DNA of 64,000 bases from Escherichia phage vB_EcoM_EP57, in sequence record OR544956; one strand, written 5' to 3'. Positions 14,346 to 21,849 of the stretch are shown here, one piece after another; within the stretch, counting starts at the first letter, position 1, and each line of letters begins with the position of its first letter. The position numbers and the translations under genes are program-made. The notes below the pieces were generated by a model. That model saw nothing but the letters and a program-made list of their open reading frames with translations, was not told where the DNA came from and ran no database searches.

Positions 14346-15140
14346 TTGAGCAAGTTGAATACACTTGATCAATATTACACTAACCCCGCTTATGCGGGGT
14401 TCTTATGTGATAAGATCAAAGAAATTTTTGGAGAGGAAGCTAACTACGTAGAACCATCTGCGGGAGAAGGAGCTTTCTCTTTTTGTTTTAAAAACATAAC
14501 TTCTTTTGATATTGATCCTAAGTTTGAAGATTGTATTGAGGCAGATTTTTTAGCTCAATCTGTTGAGTCTGTTGGTAGTGTAACTGCTTTTGTCGGTAAT
14601 CCTCCGTTTGGAAAAAATGCCAGTCTTGCCATTAAGTTCTTTAACCATTGTGCTGAAATGTTGGATAACGAAGGTGGTATTTGTTTTATCTTGCCTCGCA
14701 CATTTCAAAAAATCTTTTTTGCACACAAACTAAATCCCCACATGCATCTTCTTTACGAAGAAGAATGTCCAAAAGGATCTTTTATTCTTCATGGAGAACC
14801 TTGGGATGTTCCTTGTGTATTCCAGATATGGATTAAACGCAACGAGAAGCGTTCTCCCGTTGTTTTAGGAGAAAATCGACTGTTCGTATTAGGTAACAGT
14901 AAAGACTACGACATAGCCGTTAGGAGAGCGGGAGCAAGTGCAGGTAAAGTGTTATCAGAAGAAGATTCTTTATCTGAAGCATCTACCTACTTTTTAAAAG
15001 CCTTGACTTCTGATCTTAAAACACGTATCATTGAGGCTTACCCGTTACTTAAAGCTGAAGCTAGTAAAACTGCGGGAGTAAGAAGTTTAAGTTTAAAAGA
15101 ACTTCAGTGGGTTCTGGAGAACATTAGAAAGGAGGAATAG
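14346..15140 (+). CDS. DNA N6-adenine (amino) methyltransferase
   Basis: Motif I-like EPSAGEGAF and catalytic motif IV GNPPFG (NPPF/Y); TTG start after aaggagga. Confidence 0.6.
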   Translation: MSKLNTLDQYYTNPAYAGFLCDKIKEIFGEEANYVEPSAGEGAFSFCFKNITSFDIDPKFEDCIEADFLAQSVESVGSVTAFVGNPPFGKNASLAIKFFNHCAEMLDNEGGICFILPRTFQKIFFAHKLNPHMHLLYEEECPKGSFILHGEPWDVPCVFQIWIKRNEKRSPVVLGENRLFVLGNSKDYDIAVRRAGASAGKVLSEEDSLSEASTYFLKALTSDLKTRIIEAYPLLKAEASKTAGVRSLSLKELQWVLENIRKEE

Positions 15141-17737
15141 TGAGTAAGTTTACATGGGATATTGAAGCAAACGGATTGTTGAATAATGACACTATTGATT
15201 ATTTAGCTAGTCCTTATCGTCTCAAAGACACATTTCAAATGCACTGTATTGTCTTAGAGAACCATGAAACAGGAGAAATAGTAGCTTTCCACGATGGCCC
15301 TAAATACATCTTTGATGGGCGTCCTTATGAAGAGTCAGATGGTAAATACACATATGTTCTTAAAGAGTATGTGGCGCAAGATTACACACATTTTCAACTA
15401 AAAGATTTCCCAGATTTTATTAATCATGAAGGTTATTTTAAAGATAAGCCTGAATATCTGGTTGAAATGGCTGTGGCTCACAACGGTATCAACTACGACT
15501 GGTTGGCTACAAAACTGTTTTATGGATTAGATTACAGTGTTAAATATAATACGTGGGGCAAAAATAAGGTAAAACTTATTGACTCCTTGATTTTGAGTAA
15601 AGTGTTAAACCCAGATCGAAAGATTGAGGGCAAATCAGGACATAGCTTGGCAGCACTTTCTCGAAAAGCAGGTGGTGATGTAAAAATAGATTTCCGTAAA
15701 GAGATTCCAGAAGAAGATCGATTTAAGACTTTTGCTGCGGATATGCTTTATTACTGTATCTATGACAACAAAGCCAATACGAGCGTATATAATTACCTTA
15801 TGGAAGAATGGGGTGATTATGATAAATGGGAAGGTCCATTTGAACTTGAACAACGTGTAGCAGACATTATTACACGTCAGGAACACCGTGGATTTGCTTT
15901 TAACATGAAACAAGCAGAAGAGAACCTTGCTTTTTTGGATGCAGAAATGGAGCGTCTTCGTTTACTCGTTGAGCCTATTTTGCCACCTAAACCAGCAACA
16001 AAAGGTTATCTTAAGGCTTTTATTCCACCTAAGTTGCAAATTAAAAAGAACTTAGAGCCAACTAACCATATGATCAATTTTGCTAAGAAACATGATGGTC
16101 ATTTGGAAGAGAGGGATGGCGATTGGTGGTTAGTTATGTTGGGGAAAGAGTGGAAACTGCCAGTTGCAGCAGATGAGCCTCTATGTGATCCTAACATCCC
16201 TGCAACATTGAACGATACAACCCATATTAAAAACTGGCTTGTAGGATTAGGTTGGGTACCGTCTGAATATAAAGATAAAGACTTGACGCTTAAATCTGGC
16301 ACCAAAATTAAAAAGAGCGAGGAAGAACTTCAGAAAGGTATTCGAGCTTACGTTGAGCAAACTCTATCTTCTAATTTTTGTCAGGATCGTTGTGATCATC
16401 TGGAGTGCACACCGGAAACCTTGGAAAGGAAGATTCAAGAGCGTATAGCAAAAGGTAAAGGTCGCGGTCTTAAAGTATTGACTAACCCGTGTTTTACCAA
16501 AGGTCAGGAAAAAGAAATTTGTCCTAACCTGCAAGCTTTGGGTGAGAAGTTTCCTTATGCTACACAGATTGTAGAATACTTAACGTATAAGCATCGTAGG
16601 AACTCTATTTTAGGTGGCGGTGCTGATTGGGAAGAAGATGAAGAAGATCAAGAATACGATAAAGGTTTCTTAGCCGCAGTAAGGGCGGATGGTCGTATTC
16701 CTACCCCAGCAGCTACATGTGATGCTGCAACCTCTCGTATGAAGCATAGGTCTGTAGCTAATATTCCTCGTGTCACATCTTTGTTTGGATGGGAGATGCG
16801 TAACTTGTTTGGTGTAGAGGTTCCTAAATACTTCCAGATTGGCTACGACTTCGACTCTTTGGAAGCAAAAATTGAATCACACTACTGTTGGCGGTACGAG
16901 CCGGAGCCACACGAATATTGTAACGCTCTGTTATTAGAGAAACCTAATGATGTTCACACAATGATGGCAAAACGTATCACTGAAACTATCGGACGTAAAT
17001 TTGAACGTAGTCCTGCTAAATCTGTTAAGTATGGTATTACCTATGGTGCACAAGCCGACAAGGTTGCTAAAACAATTGGTAGCGATAAGTTTACAGGTCA
17101 ATTGGTGTTCGATGCTTTCTGGGAAGCTGCATTCCCATTGGCGCGTCTTAAAGAACGTTTAAACGATTTCTGGGTTAAGACTGGTAAACAATATGTTTTG
17201 GGTATTGACGGTCGTAAGGTTCCTACTCGTTCTGCTCACGCGATTCTTAACTCTCTGTTCCAAAGCGGCGGGGTTATCTGTGCTAAACGTGCAATGGTTA
17301 TTTATGACGACATGATCGAAGAAGAAGGGCTAAGTGTTGACTTCTTTAAAGATGACTGGAAGAATAAAGATTTCGTGCAACAAATGATTGCATATCACGA
17401 TGAAGCCCAGCTTGAAGTTTCTCGTAACCTTGTAGAATTTAAATGGTTTTCACCTGAATCATTAGGTTGGAAGAAAGTAGACGATCCTGAAGAACAAAAG
17501 AAAATTGATAAAGAATGCCTTGCTAAAGTTGAAGAATGGAAGCATAATAAGGAAAAAGAGACGGGACAAATTTGGGCTAACATTCATGAATCTCCCAAAG
17601 GTGGATGGTTTACAGCCTATAGTCGGGCAGGTGAACTTGCTGCTTTAGCTGTTACTAAGGCTGGAGAATTTTACAATCTTAACGTTCAGCTTACTGCCGG
17701 ATATGATGTGGGTAACTCTTGGGCGTCCTGTCACTAG
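15140..17737 (+). CDS. DNA polymerase, family A (T7 gp5-like) with N-terminal 3'-5' exonuclease
   Basis: WDIEANGL exonuclease motif; C-terminus RSAHAILNSLFQSGG ... GNSWASCH resembles T7 gp5 (RSPHAALNTLLQSAG ... GPNWAICH); GTG start after aggagg. Confidence 0.85.
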   Translation: MSKFTWDIEANGLLNNDTIDYLASPYRLKDTFQMHCIVLENHETGEIVAFHDGPKYIFDGRPYEESDGKYTYVLKEYVAQDYTHFQLKDFPDFINHEGYFKDKPEYLVEMAVAHNGINYDWLATKLFYGLDYSVKYNTWGKNKVKLIDSLILSKVLNPDRKIEGKSGHSLAALSRKAGGDVKIDFRKEIPEEDRFKTFAADMLYYCIYDNKANTSVYNYLMEEWGDYDKWEGPFELEQRVADIITRQEHRGFAFNMKQAEENLAFLDAEMERLRLLVEPILPPKPATKGYLKAFIPPKLQIKKNLEPTNHMINFAKKHDGHLEERDGDWWLVMLGKEWKLPVAADEPLCDPNIPATLNDTTHIKNWLVGLGWVPSEYKDKDLTLKSGTKIKKSEEELQKGIRAYVEQTLSSNFCQDRCDHLECTPETLERKIQERIAKGKGRGLKVLTNPCFTKGQEKEICPNLQALGEKFPYATQIVEYLTYKHRRNSILGGGADWEEDEEDQEYDKGFLAAVRADGRIPTPAATCDAATSRMKHRSVANIPRVTSLFGWEMRNLFGVEVPKYFQIGYDFDSLEAKIESHYCWRYEPEPHEYCNALLLEKPNDVHTMMAKRITETIGRKFERSPAKSVKYGITYGAQADKVAKTIGSDKFTGQLVFDAFWEAAFPLARLKERLNDFWVKTGKQYVLGIDGRKVPTRSAHAILNSLFQSGGVICAKRAMVIYDDMIEEEGLSVDFFKDDWKNKDFVQQMIAYHDEAQLEVSRNLVEFKWFSPESLGWKKVDDPEEQKKIDKECLAKVEEWKHNKEKETGQIWANIHESPKGGWFTAYSRAGELAALAVTKAGEFYNLNVQLTAGYDVGNSWASCH

Positions 17738-18154: not shown

Positions 18155-18373
18155 ATGCGTAAACTAGTGAGCTTTAATGTTTCAATTCTTATTGATGAAC
18201 AAAATGAAGATGTTATTAAAGGTCTTGCAAATAAGATTGCAGGTGGAATGACGGAAGCTGAAGTGTGGGAAGAATGTGCTCGACTTTATGAGGAAGGTGT
18301 TATTGAGGTCTTGGGAGATGAGATTAATATGGACGATATTGTTAAAGTAACTGTGGAGCGTATCAATGACTAA
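18155..18373 (+). CDS. Hypothetical small acidic protein
   Basis: ORF track; aaggagaaaacaATG. Confidence 0.3.
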   Translation: MRKLVSFNVSILIDEQNEDVIKGLANKIAGGMTEAEVWEECARLYEEGVIEVLGDEINMDDIVKVTVERIND

Positions 18374-18593
18374 ATCAAAACAAATCAATATTGCCAAAGA
18401 AATTCTTACCGTATTAAAGATCGCTGATCCTAATTCTGTCTTGGCTGGCGGTGCTGTTCGTGATTGGCGTATTCTTGATATTGCTGGACGTGATCTGGAT
18501 TTTTACACATCTCTTCCTGCACATCGGAAGGTGTTACTGGTCTTAAACACGTTTTTGAGTTTGAACGTGATGGTCAGCTTTGCAACCTTATGA
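18366..18593 (+). CDS. Pol-beta-superfamily nucleotidyltransferase (CCA-adding-like head), N-terminal segment; continues in the -1 frame
   Basis: VLAGGAVRDWRILDIAGRDLDFYT (GGxVRD plus DxD). Confidence 0.45.
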   Translation: MTKSKQINIAKEILTVLKIADPNSVLAGGAVRDWRILDIAGRDLDFYTSLPAHRKVLLVLNTFLSLNVMVSFATL

Positions 18594-18868
18594 TTATGGA
18601 ACCAAGCGTAATGACAACCTTTCTAAATGAGTTTGATCTGTCCATCTGTCAAGCTGCATTTGATGGGAAGGATTGTTATTATTCTAAAGATTTTGAAACA
18701 ACCTTGGAAACAGGGATCTGCTTCTTGCACAAAGATGTTAGAGAAGATGCCAAACACGTTATTAAAATTGCTACACGTTTCCCATATCTTCGTTTTGTGA
18801 AAGAGGTTAAGGTTCCACGTCCACCTCAAGTAGATACCAGATTGGAAGAAGATGATATTCCTTGGTAA
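18590..18868 (+). CDS. C-terminal segment of the nucleotidyltransferase (frame -1 relative to 18366..18593)
   Basis: This frame is open upstream of its first Met and reads ...EGVTGLKHVFEFERDGQLCNLMIMEPSV... Confidence 0.4.
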   Translation: MIMEPSVMTTFLNEFDLSICQAAFDGKDCYYSKDFETTLETGICFLHKDVREDAKHVIKIATRFPYLRFVKEVKVPRPPQVDTRLEEDDIPW

Positions 18869-18913: not shown

Positions 18914-19306
18914 ATGACTGAACGTTCTAAGATAGCTGTTGAAACTGTTTATGGAAACTATACCAGTTTGACACTAGTTGAGAAAAATGTTGTAGGTCTT
19001 GACAACTCTTTTTATTTTCAAATTTTGGTTATTCAAGGTGGAAACAAGAAGCTAACTGCTCGTGTTGAAACATCTGAAATAATTGAAACCACTGTTACAA
19101 ACAAAGAATTCATTTCACTGCAAGATACAATCCGAAACGTTATAGACGAAGAAGGCAAAGCTGCCACAATTAAACTCGGAGGTTTCCCAGTGCAAATAGT
19201 TCATTTTCCTAATGGTGAAATTGGAGTTGGAATAGGTAAAGGTAAATACCTGTTAGAGCAAGATGATATGGAAAGACTCCGCTCTTTCTGTGCAAAATTA
19301 ATGTAA
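18914..19306 (+). CDS. Hypothetical protein
   Basis: ORF track. Confidence 0.4.
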   Translation: MTERSKIAVETVYGNYTSLTLVEKNVVGLDNSFYFQILVIQGGNKKLTARVETSEIIETTVTNKEFISLQDTIRNVIDEEGKAATIKLGGFPVQIVHFPNGEIGVGIGKGKYLLEQDDMERLRSFCAKLM

Positions 19307-19322
19307 TGTAGAGGAGATAATA

Positions 19323-20210
19323 ATGTCCGTAATTAATACTGAAACTGATCGTAAAGGCAAAACCGTAACTTATGCAACTGGTATCGTAGACTACGTTAAA
19401 CTGGATAAATTCGCTGAACCTAAAACTTTCCATTGGGAAGGAAAAACGATTGTTTCAACTCACCGAGCTTCTCTTGTTCTGAAAGAGAAAGGTGCTAAAC
19501 CAGATGAGAAAGGTGTTTGGATTTCTCTTGGTGACATTGAACTGAAAGAAGGTTATGAAAACCTGCAAGTCAAAGAAGGTGATAACTGGATCACTATTGA
19601 AAAAGGTGTAGAAGTAAGTATTGATATTGATCGCGTTGATAATAAAGGCGGTAAAACTTACTACAATACTAAAAAATCTCGTATTACAGTATTGTCTACC
19701 GAGGGTGTTCAGAAGTCTAACAAATCTTCTGGCAATAAGGGGTCCAACGATGCGGCTCCTAAACAATCCTATAAAAAACGTGATACTGTAGGTCTGGAAA
19801 CTGGTCACGCAGTAAATGGTGCACTGGAACTGATTCGTAATGGTGTTAAAGGCGATGCTTTCGATATTGCTGGGGTTGTTCAATCTGCAACTGTCACGCT
19901 GAAATCTGAAATTGCTGAATCTCGTGGCGTTGATATTAATGATTATGATCTTGGGGCATCTGTTGGTCACGCTATTCTCAATGCTTGTAAAGACCATACT
20001 ATTAAGACTGTCTCTGTAGAAGATCTGATTGATTCTGCTCGTAAAGTTCTGGCTCTGTCTGATAAAGTTGCTGCTGCCATTCGTGGTTCAGCAGAACAGC
20101 CTAAGAAAGAAGAGAAGAAAGAAGTTAAGAAACCTGAACCACAACCAGAACCAACTCCAAGTAATCAAGAAGAACCTCCAATGGACTTCGACGATGATAT
20201 TCCATTCTGA
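19323..20210 (+). CDS. Single-stranded-DNA-binding-like protein with an E. coli SSB-type C-terminal tip
   Basis: C-terminus EEPPMDFDDDIPF is essentially the E. coli SSB interaction tail (MDFDDDIPF), preceded by a Pro/Glu-rich linker. Confidence 0.5.
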   Translation: MSVINTETDRKGKTVTYATGIVDYVKLDKFAEPKTFHWEGKTIVSTHRASLVLKEKGAKPDEKGVWISLGDIELKEGYENLQVKEGDNWITIEKGVEVSIDIDRVDNKGGKTYYNTKKSRITVLSTEGVQKSNKSSGNKGSNDAAPKQSYKKRDTVGLETGHAVNGALELIRNGVKGDAFDIAGVVQSATVTLKSEIAESRGVDINDYDLGASVGHAILNACKDHTIKTVSVEDLIDSARKVLALSDKVAAAIRGSAEQPKKEEKKEVKKPEPQPEPTPSNQEEPPMDFDDDIPF

Positions 20211-20220
20211 TCTTATTGAT

Positions 20221-21849
20221 TTATAAAGAGTTTTTATAAAAGAAAAGATACTCAACAACCATACCAGGTAAGCTTGCTGCCCCTGTTGGCGTTATTTCTG
20301 CTACCATTGTTTGTGTTGTTCCTACATCCATCGCAGATAAGCTAGGAGTGTAAACGCTCAATGTTGAAGCATATCCTCCAGAGGTATCTGATAAAGTTGT
20401 TCCTTCAGCGTTTAAGGCTGTCATACCTGCATCAAAACCACCTTCTGCATGGAAAGTCATTAAACCAGTAGATGATATTGTCATGTTTGCAGGGGCAGAA
20501 GAAGTGTATTTAATATTGAAAAGTTTACCTCCTTCTGGGCTAACAGAATGTGTCAACTGTTTAGTTCCACCTACAATACAAATTCCTAAAGAATCTGTAG
20601 TTAAGCCAGTTGCCAGAATATCACCCGTAATCACGGAGCTTGCTATTGGTGTGAATTTATTATAGTTTAGACCGCTATTGAACAGATACGAGGCTTTCCC
20701 ATCTTTCCAAATACCGGAATAATACATATCTCCATTATAAACGAAAAAGGTTCCTTGATAACCTAATTGGTTAGTAACATCCATATTCAGCGTATGAACG
20801 CTTGTGAGCTTGTTTATATCCCAAGAACCCACTCCTTCAGGTTTAACTGGTTTTCCCACTTGGAGTGGATCTCCGCTCGCAGAATCATACCCCAAACCTA
20901 AGTTTGCAGTGTAGTTCTTACCAATAGCCCACAAGGAATTATTGATCCCAACGAAAAAAGAGTGGCGGCTTGGTGGAAACTTCCATGTTGAGAAACCTGC
21001 TGCAAAGGTATCCAGTTTAGTGTAGGTTGTTTCTGTATTAGACCTAACATATAAGTAGTTTACTGTACCCGAGCCACCGGAGGTATCTCCTACAACTATT
21101 GTCTGGGAAACTGTATTGATGTAATCTTTGACATACACTGTTTCAGTAGCGGATATCTTAGCATTGACAAAAGCTGTTGTTGTGTTATTATTACCTGCTA
21201 AACCTTTACTAGCTCCACAAACACGCAAGGTTCCCACATTGTTGACATAAGAGCATTGGTTGTAACCTGCATCAAAAGCAACTGCTGCACTTGTTATCTG
21301 ACGAGGAGTAGAAACTTCGTTAGTAGTACTTGCACCTAAACTACCTACTGTGTTTTGACCTGATCCATAAAGAACACCACTATTCATTAACCAGAGAGTG
21401 TTGTTATATCCTCCCTTAACCTCTTTAAGATTGGCTAAAGAGATAGTCCCTGTTATTACAGATGGAAAGCTGGTCCAAGTAGTTACACATGCGTCCGTAC
21501 CACCTGCCGCTATAGATCCTACCAATCCTGCTGTCAATCCTGAATATTGCCATCCCCCACTGTTAGTTTTAATAACAAAACAACGATCTGCGGTAAACAC
21601 ATCCGCTACTACAGTAGAAGCTAAGTGGAAATTATTGAATCGTGCACTACGAGTTCCATCTGCAATCTCACCAAAAAGGTTTGCGCCTTGAGTAAACAAT
21701 CTACCATCATTAAGCAAAATTGCTAAACTGCTATTAGAATTACCAGCATTATCTGGGTAATCTAAAGTGATTACTTTTTTAACAATACCTGCTGGCAGAG
21801 GAACGACACCAGTGCTGGTCATAATAGTAAATATTGGAATTGGAAACAT
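20221..21849 (-). CDS. Tail fiber or receptor-binding protein (Gly/Thr/Ser-rich, repetitive)
   Basis: 542 aa, last gene of the late module; repeated G-x-hydrophobic segments. Confidence 0.4.
   Translation of the reverse strand: MFPIPIFTIMTSTGVVPLPAGIVKKVITLDYPDNAGNSNSSLAILLNDGRLFTQGANLFGEIADGTRSARFNNFHLASTVVADVFTADRCFVIKTNSGGWQYSGLTAGLVGSIAAGGTDACVTTWTSFPSVITGTISLANLKEVKGGYNNTLWLMNSGVLYGSGQNTVGSLGASTTNEVSTPRQITSAAVAFDAGYNQCSYVNNVGTLRVCGASKGLAGNNNTTTAFVNAKISATETVYVKDYINTVSQTIVVGDTSGGSGTVNYLYVRSNTETTYTKLDTFAAGFSTWKFPPSRHSFFVGINNSLWAIGKNYTANLGLGYDSASGDPLQVGKPVKPEGVGSWDINKLTSVHTLNMDVTNQLGYQGTFFVYNGDMYYSGIWKDGKASYLFNSGLNYNKFTPIASSVITGDILATGLTTDSLGICIVGGTKQLTHSVSPEGGKLFNIKYTSSAPANMTISSTGLMTFHAEGGFDAGMTALNAEGTTLSDTSGGYASTLSVYTPSLSAMDVGTTQTMVAEITPTGAASLPGMVVEYLFFYKNSL

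Follow-up and report, generated by a model that had tools for sequence, protein, structure and literature searches.

The SSB-like gene at the end of the replication module in the analyzed stretch of phage DNA (the window, 64 kb in full) probably encodes the phage's own replication and recombination SSB, which would dock host and/or phage partners via its C-terminal tip; we assign this reading a probability of about 0.72. It is supported by the 12/12 identity of the tip with that of E. coli SSB, the SSB-like layout of the protein, the position of the gene in the module, its standing as the sole SSB candidate found in a composite genome, the pairing of the OB domain with the tip across the family, the homology to Bas52_0087, and two existing SSB annotations. 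Against it count the OB domain, which neither sequence nor profile searches could connect with PF00436 or a solved structure, an allele of the phage nieznany that is capped by 15 residues after IPF, and the harmlessness of Bas52_0087 expressed alone. The family to which the protein belongs, PHROG 4477, is most likely a non-canonical, phage-restricted SSB family. The features of the locus are presented in Table 1.

Table 1. Features of the SSB-like gene, its surroundings, and the related loci (positions refer to the window unless a locus is named)
Feature	Position	Strand	Remarks
Family A DNA polymerase	15140-17737	+	PF00476; part of the replication module
Nucleotidyltransferase-like gene, split in two ORFs	18366-18593 and 18590-18868	+	PHROG 10174
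Stop codon of the upstream ORF	19304-19306		16-nt gap to the SSB-like gene start
Ribosome-binding site	19311..19316	+	GAGGAG, 6 nt upstream of the SSB-like ATG; read from the sequence
SSB-like CDS	19323..20210	+	ATG start, TGA stop, 295 aa, ends EEPPMDFDDDIPF; PHROG 4477; from the ORF list and the sequence
Predicted OB-fold domain, residues 1 to ~128	19323..19706	+	all-beta; pLDDT about 80-91
Basic disordered linker, residues ~129-152	19707..19778	+	pI 10.1, pLDDT about 42
Four-helix domain, residues ~153-255	19779..20087	+	motifs G-H-A-V-N-G-A (161-167) and G-H-A-I-L-N-A (215-221)
Disordered K/E/P-rich linker, residues 256-283	20088..20171	+	SAEQPKKEEKKEVKKPEPQPEPTPSNQE
Acidic tip, residues 284-295	20172..20207	+	EPPMDFDDDIPF, the last 12 residues of E. 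coli SSB; TGA directly after (20208-20210)
RCC1-repeat tail-fibre-like gene	20221-21849	-	convergent
Junction of the ~1.09-kb absence	~20241-20247		missing segment is L001 12927-14020
Polymerase region of SRR26961125	L002 1-2364		longer polymerase product, extra ORF
Post-tip extension/HNH loci in relatives	L002 4889-5399; L010 2425-2896; L011 2377-2761; L012 2617-3213
Post-tip extension/HNH loci in relatives	L014 (phage nieznany, MN850598.1) 2385-2899; L013 1120-1167; L015 4460-4507
HNH endonuclease with a tip-like end	L012 2671-3213		ends ...EIKIPF

Genomic setting and domain layout

The SSB-like gene is the final gene of the plus-strand replication module, and the short gap that separates it from the upstream ORF suggests that it is probably co-transcribed with this module. 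In phAPEC8_ev052, the gene likewise ends a same-strand block with the primase/helicase and family A DNA polymerase genes, and the tail-fibre genes lie convergent to this block. Orthologues of the gene in 64 Phapecoctavirus genomes (phAPEC8-like E. coli myoviruses of ~150 kb) are 98-99% identical to it; nearly all are annotated as hypothetical, and two GenBank records name an SSB. The window as a whole is 98-99% identical to E. coli Phapecoctavirus isolates, in agreement with the enterobacterial host that the preliminary description had deduced from the tip. A composite genome was assembled from the window and the remaining parts of phAPEC8_ev052. Neither the annotations nor a phmmer search with the OB domain of E. 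coli SSB (residues 1-116, 100% identical to the database entry P0269), which matched nothing in the phage, revealed a second SSB in it; a gp32-like or gp2.5-like protein could escape a search of this limited kind.

Several differences from relatives were observed in the vicinity of the gene. Compared to phAPEC8_ev052, approximately 1.09 kb are absent from the window just 3' of the SSB-like gene. In relatives, the SSB gene is followed by a G+C-rich terminator hairpin, which is missing along with this segment; also missing are ~350 codons from the C-terminal part of the convergent RCC1-repeat tail-fibre-like gene, the product of which has 542 aa in the window compared to 846-891 aa in relatives. 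Either a true deletion or an artefact of the assembly could account for this absence. Another difference from phAPEC8_ev052, an out-of-frame deletion of 91 bp, is located two genes upstream of the SSB-like gene and divides a 197-aa nucleotidyltransferase-like gene, annotated as tRNA nucleotidyltransferase/poly(A) polymerase; the product of this gene ends in ...RLEEDDIPW and thus also has an acidic C-terminus similar to the SSB tip. The DNA polymerase product of the metagenomic relative SRR26961125 is 1189 aa long compared to 865 aa in the window and is followed by an extra 198-aa ORF, which suggests that the replication module of some Phapecoctavirus genomes has received a further mobile insertion (an intein or a homing-endonuclease gene).

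The AlphaFold2 model of the protein (47 homologues, mean pLDDT 81) comprises an all-beta domain (residues 1-125), a basic disordered linker (132-149), four long helices (156-253), and a disordered tail (254-295). The preliminary description had made its SSB proposal dependent on an OB fold and ssDNA binding, and the structure prediction confidently assigned the OB fold to the N-terminal 125 residues. The best structural matches of the predicted domain were ssDNA-binding OB domains, with further matches to MCM10, RecO, Pot1, and Teb1, and the matches obtained with Foldseek in BFVD were uncharacterised phage proteins only. Aromatic or basic character is kept at positions H47, W66, K75, K84, W89, K111, and Y114 in a broad 60-sequence alignment, a pattern that is compatible with an ssDNA-binding surface but is no proof of it.

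At the sequence level, the N-terminal region had been described as unlike that of host SSB, and the Pfam, phmmer, and hhalign comparisons all agreed with this in finding no link between the two. The Pfam search gave no match for the SSB-like protein, including PF00436; two chance hits below the threshold fell in stretches of low complexity or helical character. The alignment of the family OB profile with an E. coli-type SSB OB alignment by hhalign had a probability of 0.3%, which is a weak negative given the low diversity of the latter (all of its SSBs share at least 92% identity with that of E. coli). Searches of all PDB sequences with profile HMMs of either domain, OB or helical, retrieved nothing below an E-value of 0.39. 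The T7 gp2.5/Enc34-type SSB (PF10991) gave no family-model sequence match and was absent from the top structural matches.

The conserved four-helix domain, on which the preliminary description was silent, carries the only experimentally selected mutations in the PHROG 4477 family. Modelled alone, it reached a pLDDT of 95 and a pTM of 0.87, and its structural matches were generic bundles only. Residue D154 of this domain is conserved in at least 90% of the family. We propose that the domain is an oligomerisation or partner-binding module. Residues ~254-295 are of low confidence or disordered in the model; they form the final linker and the acidic tip ending in ...DDDIPF, as in the SSB family.

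The C-terminus of the protein reads ...SNQEEPPMDFDDDIPF, and that of the E. coli SSB database entry P0269 reads ...SNEPPMDFDDDIPF. The phmmer search against PDB sequences aligned residues 269-295 only; the hits were E. coli SSB (1eqq/4mz9) and a 180-aa SSB (7f2n), and EPPMDFDDDIPF was identical in 12 of 12 positions in both. The exact E. coli SSB tip claimed in the preliminary description is thus corroborated by both the PDB sequences and P0269. Judged by the sequences, 12 consecutive identities to host SSB cannot be attributed to chance. Among the 663 ORFs of at least 50 aa in the composite genome, an acidic C-terminus with a hydrophobic-P-aromatic end was present in two, the SSB-like protein and the EEDDIPW protein described above. 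The tip-coding DNA was only 78-86% identical to E. coli, plasmid, and prophage ssb genes over ~45 nt (E-values of 0.03 or worse). A recent capture of the tip from host ssb DNA was rejected on these grounds; the identity thus reflects conservation of the protein rather than recently transferred DNA.

The protein shares with bacterial SSBs (PF00436) the predicted OB fold, the disordered linker, and the acidic tip, whereas its four-helix domain is an addition and its OB domain has no detectable sequence or profile similarity to theirs. The final linker is K/E/P-rich, in contrast to the G/Q/P-rich linker of E. coli SSB, a protein that forms tetramers via its OB domains. Phage OB-fold ssDNA binders that are sequence-unrelated to PF00436 include T7 gp2.5, T4 gp32, and Enc34 ORF6, the acidic C-terminal tails of which mediate protein contacts and regulate DNA binding; the window protein resembles them as a putative non-canonical phage SSB with an acidic C-terminal tail.

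The PHROG 4477 family and its relatives with extended tips

The SSB-like protein matched phrog_4477 (annotated as "unknown function") with an E-value of 2.4e-97, and the SSB PHROGs matched its tail only. A total of 136 homologues were found among 5.8 billion proteins, and nearly all of the 120 homologues listed end in an acidic, D-rich ...IPF. In the homologues of 370-425 aa, the OB and helical domains are separated by an additional beta domain of ~60 aa; this domain is lacking in the window protein and in its relatives of 275-320 aa, making the window protein a short-form member of the family. No Pfam domain, including PF00436, was detected in 60 diverse family members. As judged from the models and sequences, the family is tied to canonical SSB by its predicted fold and its tail only.

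The pairing of the OB domain with the tip was further assessed with an OB-domain profile from which the tail was excluded. In 1.84 billion representatives, this profile matched 180 proteins, of which 139 were new; 95 of these new proteins have an acidic ...[ILV]PF end, and the others are mostly fragments or carry near variants such as PFN, SPF, and ELF. The recovery of the tip by a tail-blind search indicates that the OB domain and the tip are a conserved, functional, and ancestral pair. The tip sequences of the distant members vary (DDLPF, DCPF, DSIPF, and DDVPF), and PPMDFDDDIPF is kept in E. coli, Serratia, and metagenomic members. The family-wide occurrence of the tip indicates that it is ancestral to PHROG 4477 rather than recently captured. 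Since an acidic ...IPF tip of this kind is also common to bacterial and many phage SSBs, its ancestral presence points to an ordinary SSB design rather than to a special mimicry.

The one experimentally studied homologue, Bas52_0087, is required for triggering DRT10 (UG17), an ssDNA-linked reverse-transcriptase defence, and the phage Bas52 mutants that escape this defence carry D252V or Y351C in Bas52_0087 (bioRxiv 10.64898/2026.04.29.721553). The AlphaFold2 and Phold predictions gave it an "SSB-like architecture", comprising two OB folds as well as a disordered C-terminus that ends in FDDDIPF, and the authors regarded the helical domain as a putative oligomerisation interface (bioRxiv 10.64898/2026.04.29.721553). 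Expressed alone, Bas52_0087 was neither toxic to E. coli nor sufficient for DRT10 triggering, and the dosage of host ExoI (SbcB) modulated the defence (bioRxiv 10.64898/2026.04.29.721553). The protein corresponds to QXV84166.1 of Escherichia phage RudolfGeigy (Bas52, Vequintavirus), which was also the tblastn target of the family member P0080, and one and the same protein search retrieves it and the window protein. By BLASTP, the window protein matched Bas52_0087 in the OB domain (E-value of 8e-13) and in the helical domain with the tail (8e-16). Both are encoded by large E. coli myoviruses and share the order of the N-terminal OB domain, the helical domain, and the disordered tail ending in FDDDIPF; the window protein is a short-form Bas52_0087/PHROG 4477 member with an SSB-like layout. 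In contrast to the window protein, Bas52_0087 is 408 aa long, has a second, small beta domain inserted after the OB domain and ahead of the helical one (the preprint speaks of 'two OB-fold domains'), and ends in QYSFDDDIPF where the window protein has EPPMDFDDDIPF; the identity between the two is only about 33-35%. In the alignment, the counterpart of the escape site D252 is the conserved D154, and that of Y351 is A250 in the last helix, so that this tyrosine is not conserved; both escape sites are thereby placed in the helical domain.

Some relatives extend beyond the tip. Approximately 17 of the 120 homologues listed, and several more from the OB-profile search, carry a conserved peptide of 14-17 aa after IPF, which reads A[PSY][ILV]GL[QP]Y followed by 7-10 residues (APIGLQYGRNFLHCF, APVGLQYARHAISALYA, and SPLGLQYPNHSMYALYA are examples); the window protein itself stops right after IPF. 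A search with a 40-aa extension query returned five fragments only. A similar extension was observed after canonical PF00436 SSBs, as in ...DDDIPFAPVTLPFPRHAIHAI of the Citrobacter P22-like erf-ssb prophage module. A homologous HNH endonuclease gene (PHROG 2340) is often the next gene after the extended SSB-like gene, and one of these endonucleases, encoded in a metagenomic contig, itself has a tip-like end. The extension was rejected as a by-product of a frame overlap with the HNH gene, because the HNH start offsets vary and some extended loci have no HNH gene; a read-through into a group I intron was likewise discarded, the Rfam search having given nothing above noise. The extension could be a tip mask, a degron, or the scar of a homing cassette. 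In SSB-Ct complexes, the binding pockets read the terminal carboxylate, and residues after the Phe should block recognition. The allele of phage nieznany, which was isolated on and forms plaques on K-12, has the 15 residues APIGLQYGRNFLHCF after IPF, and the viability of this phage suggests that it may do without a free C-terminal Phe under laboratory conditions.

Functional interpretation

In the preferred reading, the N-terminal OB domain would bind the ssDNA that the primase-helicase and the family A polymerase of the phage expose, and the four-helix domain would join subunits or contact a partner, so that several tails could be displayed on the coated DNA. The disordered linker would then present the host-identical tip, and the phage-coated ssDNA may resemble host-SSB-coated ssDNA to tip-binding proteins; ExoI, RecJ, RecQ, PriA, RecO, Ung, and DnaG are the candidate host partners, and the tip may likewise serve replisome or recombination proteins of the phage. 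The ORF, the tip identity, the predicted fold, the pairing of domain and tip, the gene position, and the homology to Bas52_0087 are results of the analysis, and the ssDNA binding, the oligomerisation, and the identity of the tip partners are inferred. The hijacking of host SSB-interacting proteins, proposed in the preliminary description, is suggested by the 12/12 identity. The genetics of the homologue (Bas52_0087, DRT10, and SbcB/ExoI) provides the only further support for it, and this support is indirect.

An unlikely extension of this scheme gives more weight to the four-helix domain, which might be a new oligomerisation and partner module, making the protein more than a passively coating SSB, and the surface that DRT10-type systems have evolved to sense. 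Its multivalent host-identical tips would actively redirect or block ExoI and other host ssDNA nucleases during infection. In that case, the phage would use the family to counter host ssDNA processing, with the tip as the weapon, and the post-tip extension alleles of the relatives would be natural off-switches.

The SSB might instead use its tip mainly for phage partners. These would be the polymerase, the primase-helicase, the DprA-like and RdgC-like proteins, and the exonucleases, all of which are encoded in the composite genome together with a UvrD-type helicase, and the identity with the host tip would reflect shared ancestry or the constraint of the tip pocket rather than hijacking. The tails of T7 gp2.5 and T4 gp32 serve phage partners, and in PHROG 4477 the tip is ancestral but variable in the distant members. 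HK620 SSB, a tetrameric distant homologue of bacterial SSB with the tip NDYPPF, requires its last six residues to load the phage's own Sak4 onto coated ssDNA (PMC5928155). It resembles the window protein as a mobile-element SSB with a partner-recruiting tip, differing in the tip sequence and in that its demonstrated partner is the phage Sak4, and this precedent qualifies the host-hijacking reading. However, the exact match of the additional EPPM residues to the host would be needless for phage partners alone, with PPMDFDDDIPF kept in several family members, and the genetic link of the homologue to host ExoI points to host partners too. A tip devoted mainly to phage proteins therefore appears quite unlikely, while being compatible with the main reading.

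It is similarly improbable that the protein acts chiefly as a decoy, with ssDNA binding not its main job. An oligomer formed by the helical domains would in that case display several host-identical tips and titrate or relocate ExoI, RecJ, RecQ, and other proteins, and the outcome would be either the protection of phage DNA ends and ssDNA or the shutdown of host repair and restart. The 12/12 identity exceeds what most phage SSBs keep, and both Bas52_0087 escape mutations fall in the helical rather than the OB domain; both points favour a decoy. In contrast, the family-wide pairing of the tip with a conserved OB domain, including its aromatic and basic positions, is the pattern of a true SSB, and something must coat the phage ssDNA in a phage where annotation and similarity to E. 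coli SSB revealed no other SSB candidate. The capped tip of phage nieznany also argues against a decoy, as does the absence of toxicity of Bas52_0087 alone, which makes strong competition for essential host SSB partners unlikely. That the protein is no SSB at all, its OB-like barrel binding protein, RNA, or oligosaccharide and its tail being a chance or vestigial resemblance, is very improbable, even though no sequence-level link to any SSB family was found, OB folds serve many different functions, and the annotation of PHROG 4477 reads "unknown function".

Significance for the Phapecoctavirus group

Phage and plasmid SSBs with host-like tips are already well known, and the current understanding of SSBs is thus unchanged by the identification of another one. 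The gene itself is called an SSB in the two records mentioned above, and the architecture and the tip of its homologue were described in the preprint (bioRxiv 10.64898/2026.04.29.721553). With the results presented here, PHROG 4477 gains a supported functional assignment as a putative SSB that combines a predicted OB fold with a helical module and a tip of the host type. Phage therapy and defence-system screens both employ large E. coli myoviruses of the phAPEC8 and rV5 groups, the replication proteins of which are mostly annotated as hypothetical. The Phapecoctavirus gene is now linked to Bas52_0087, and this homology predicts that DRT10-type systems may sense Phapecoctavirus phages. Should the tip indeed dock the partners of host SSB, the protein would be a compact natural tool for studying how host and virus share the SSB interactome.
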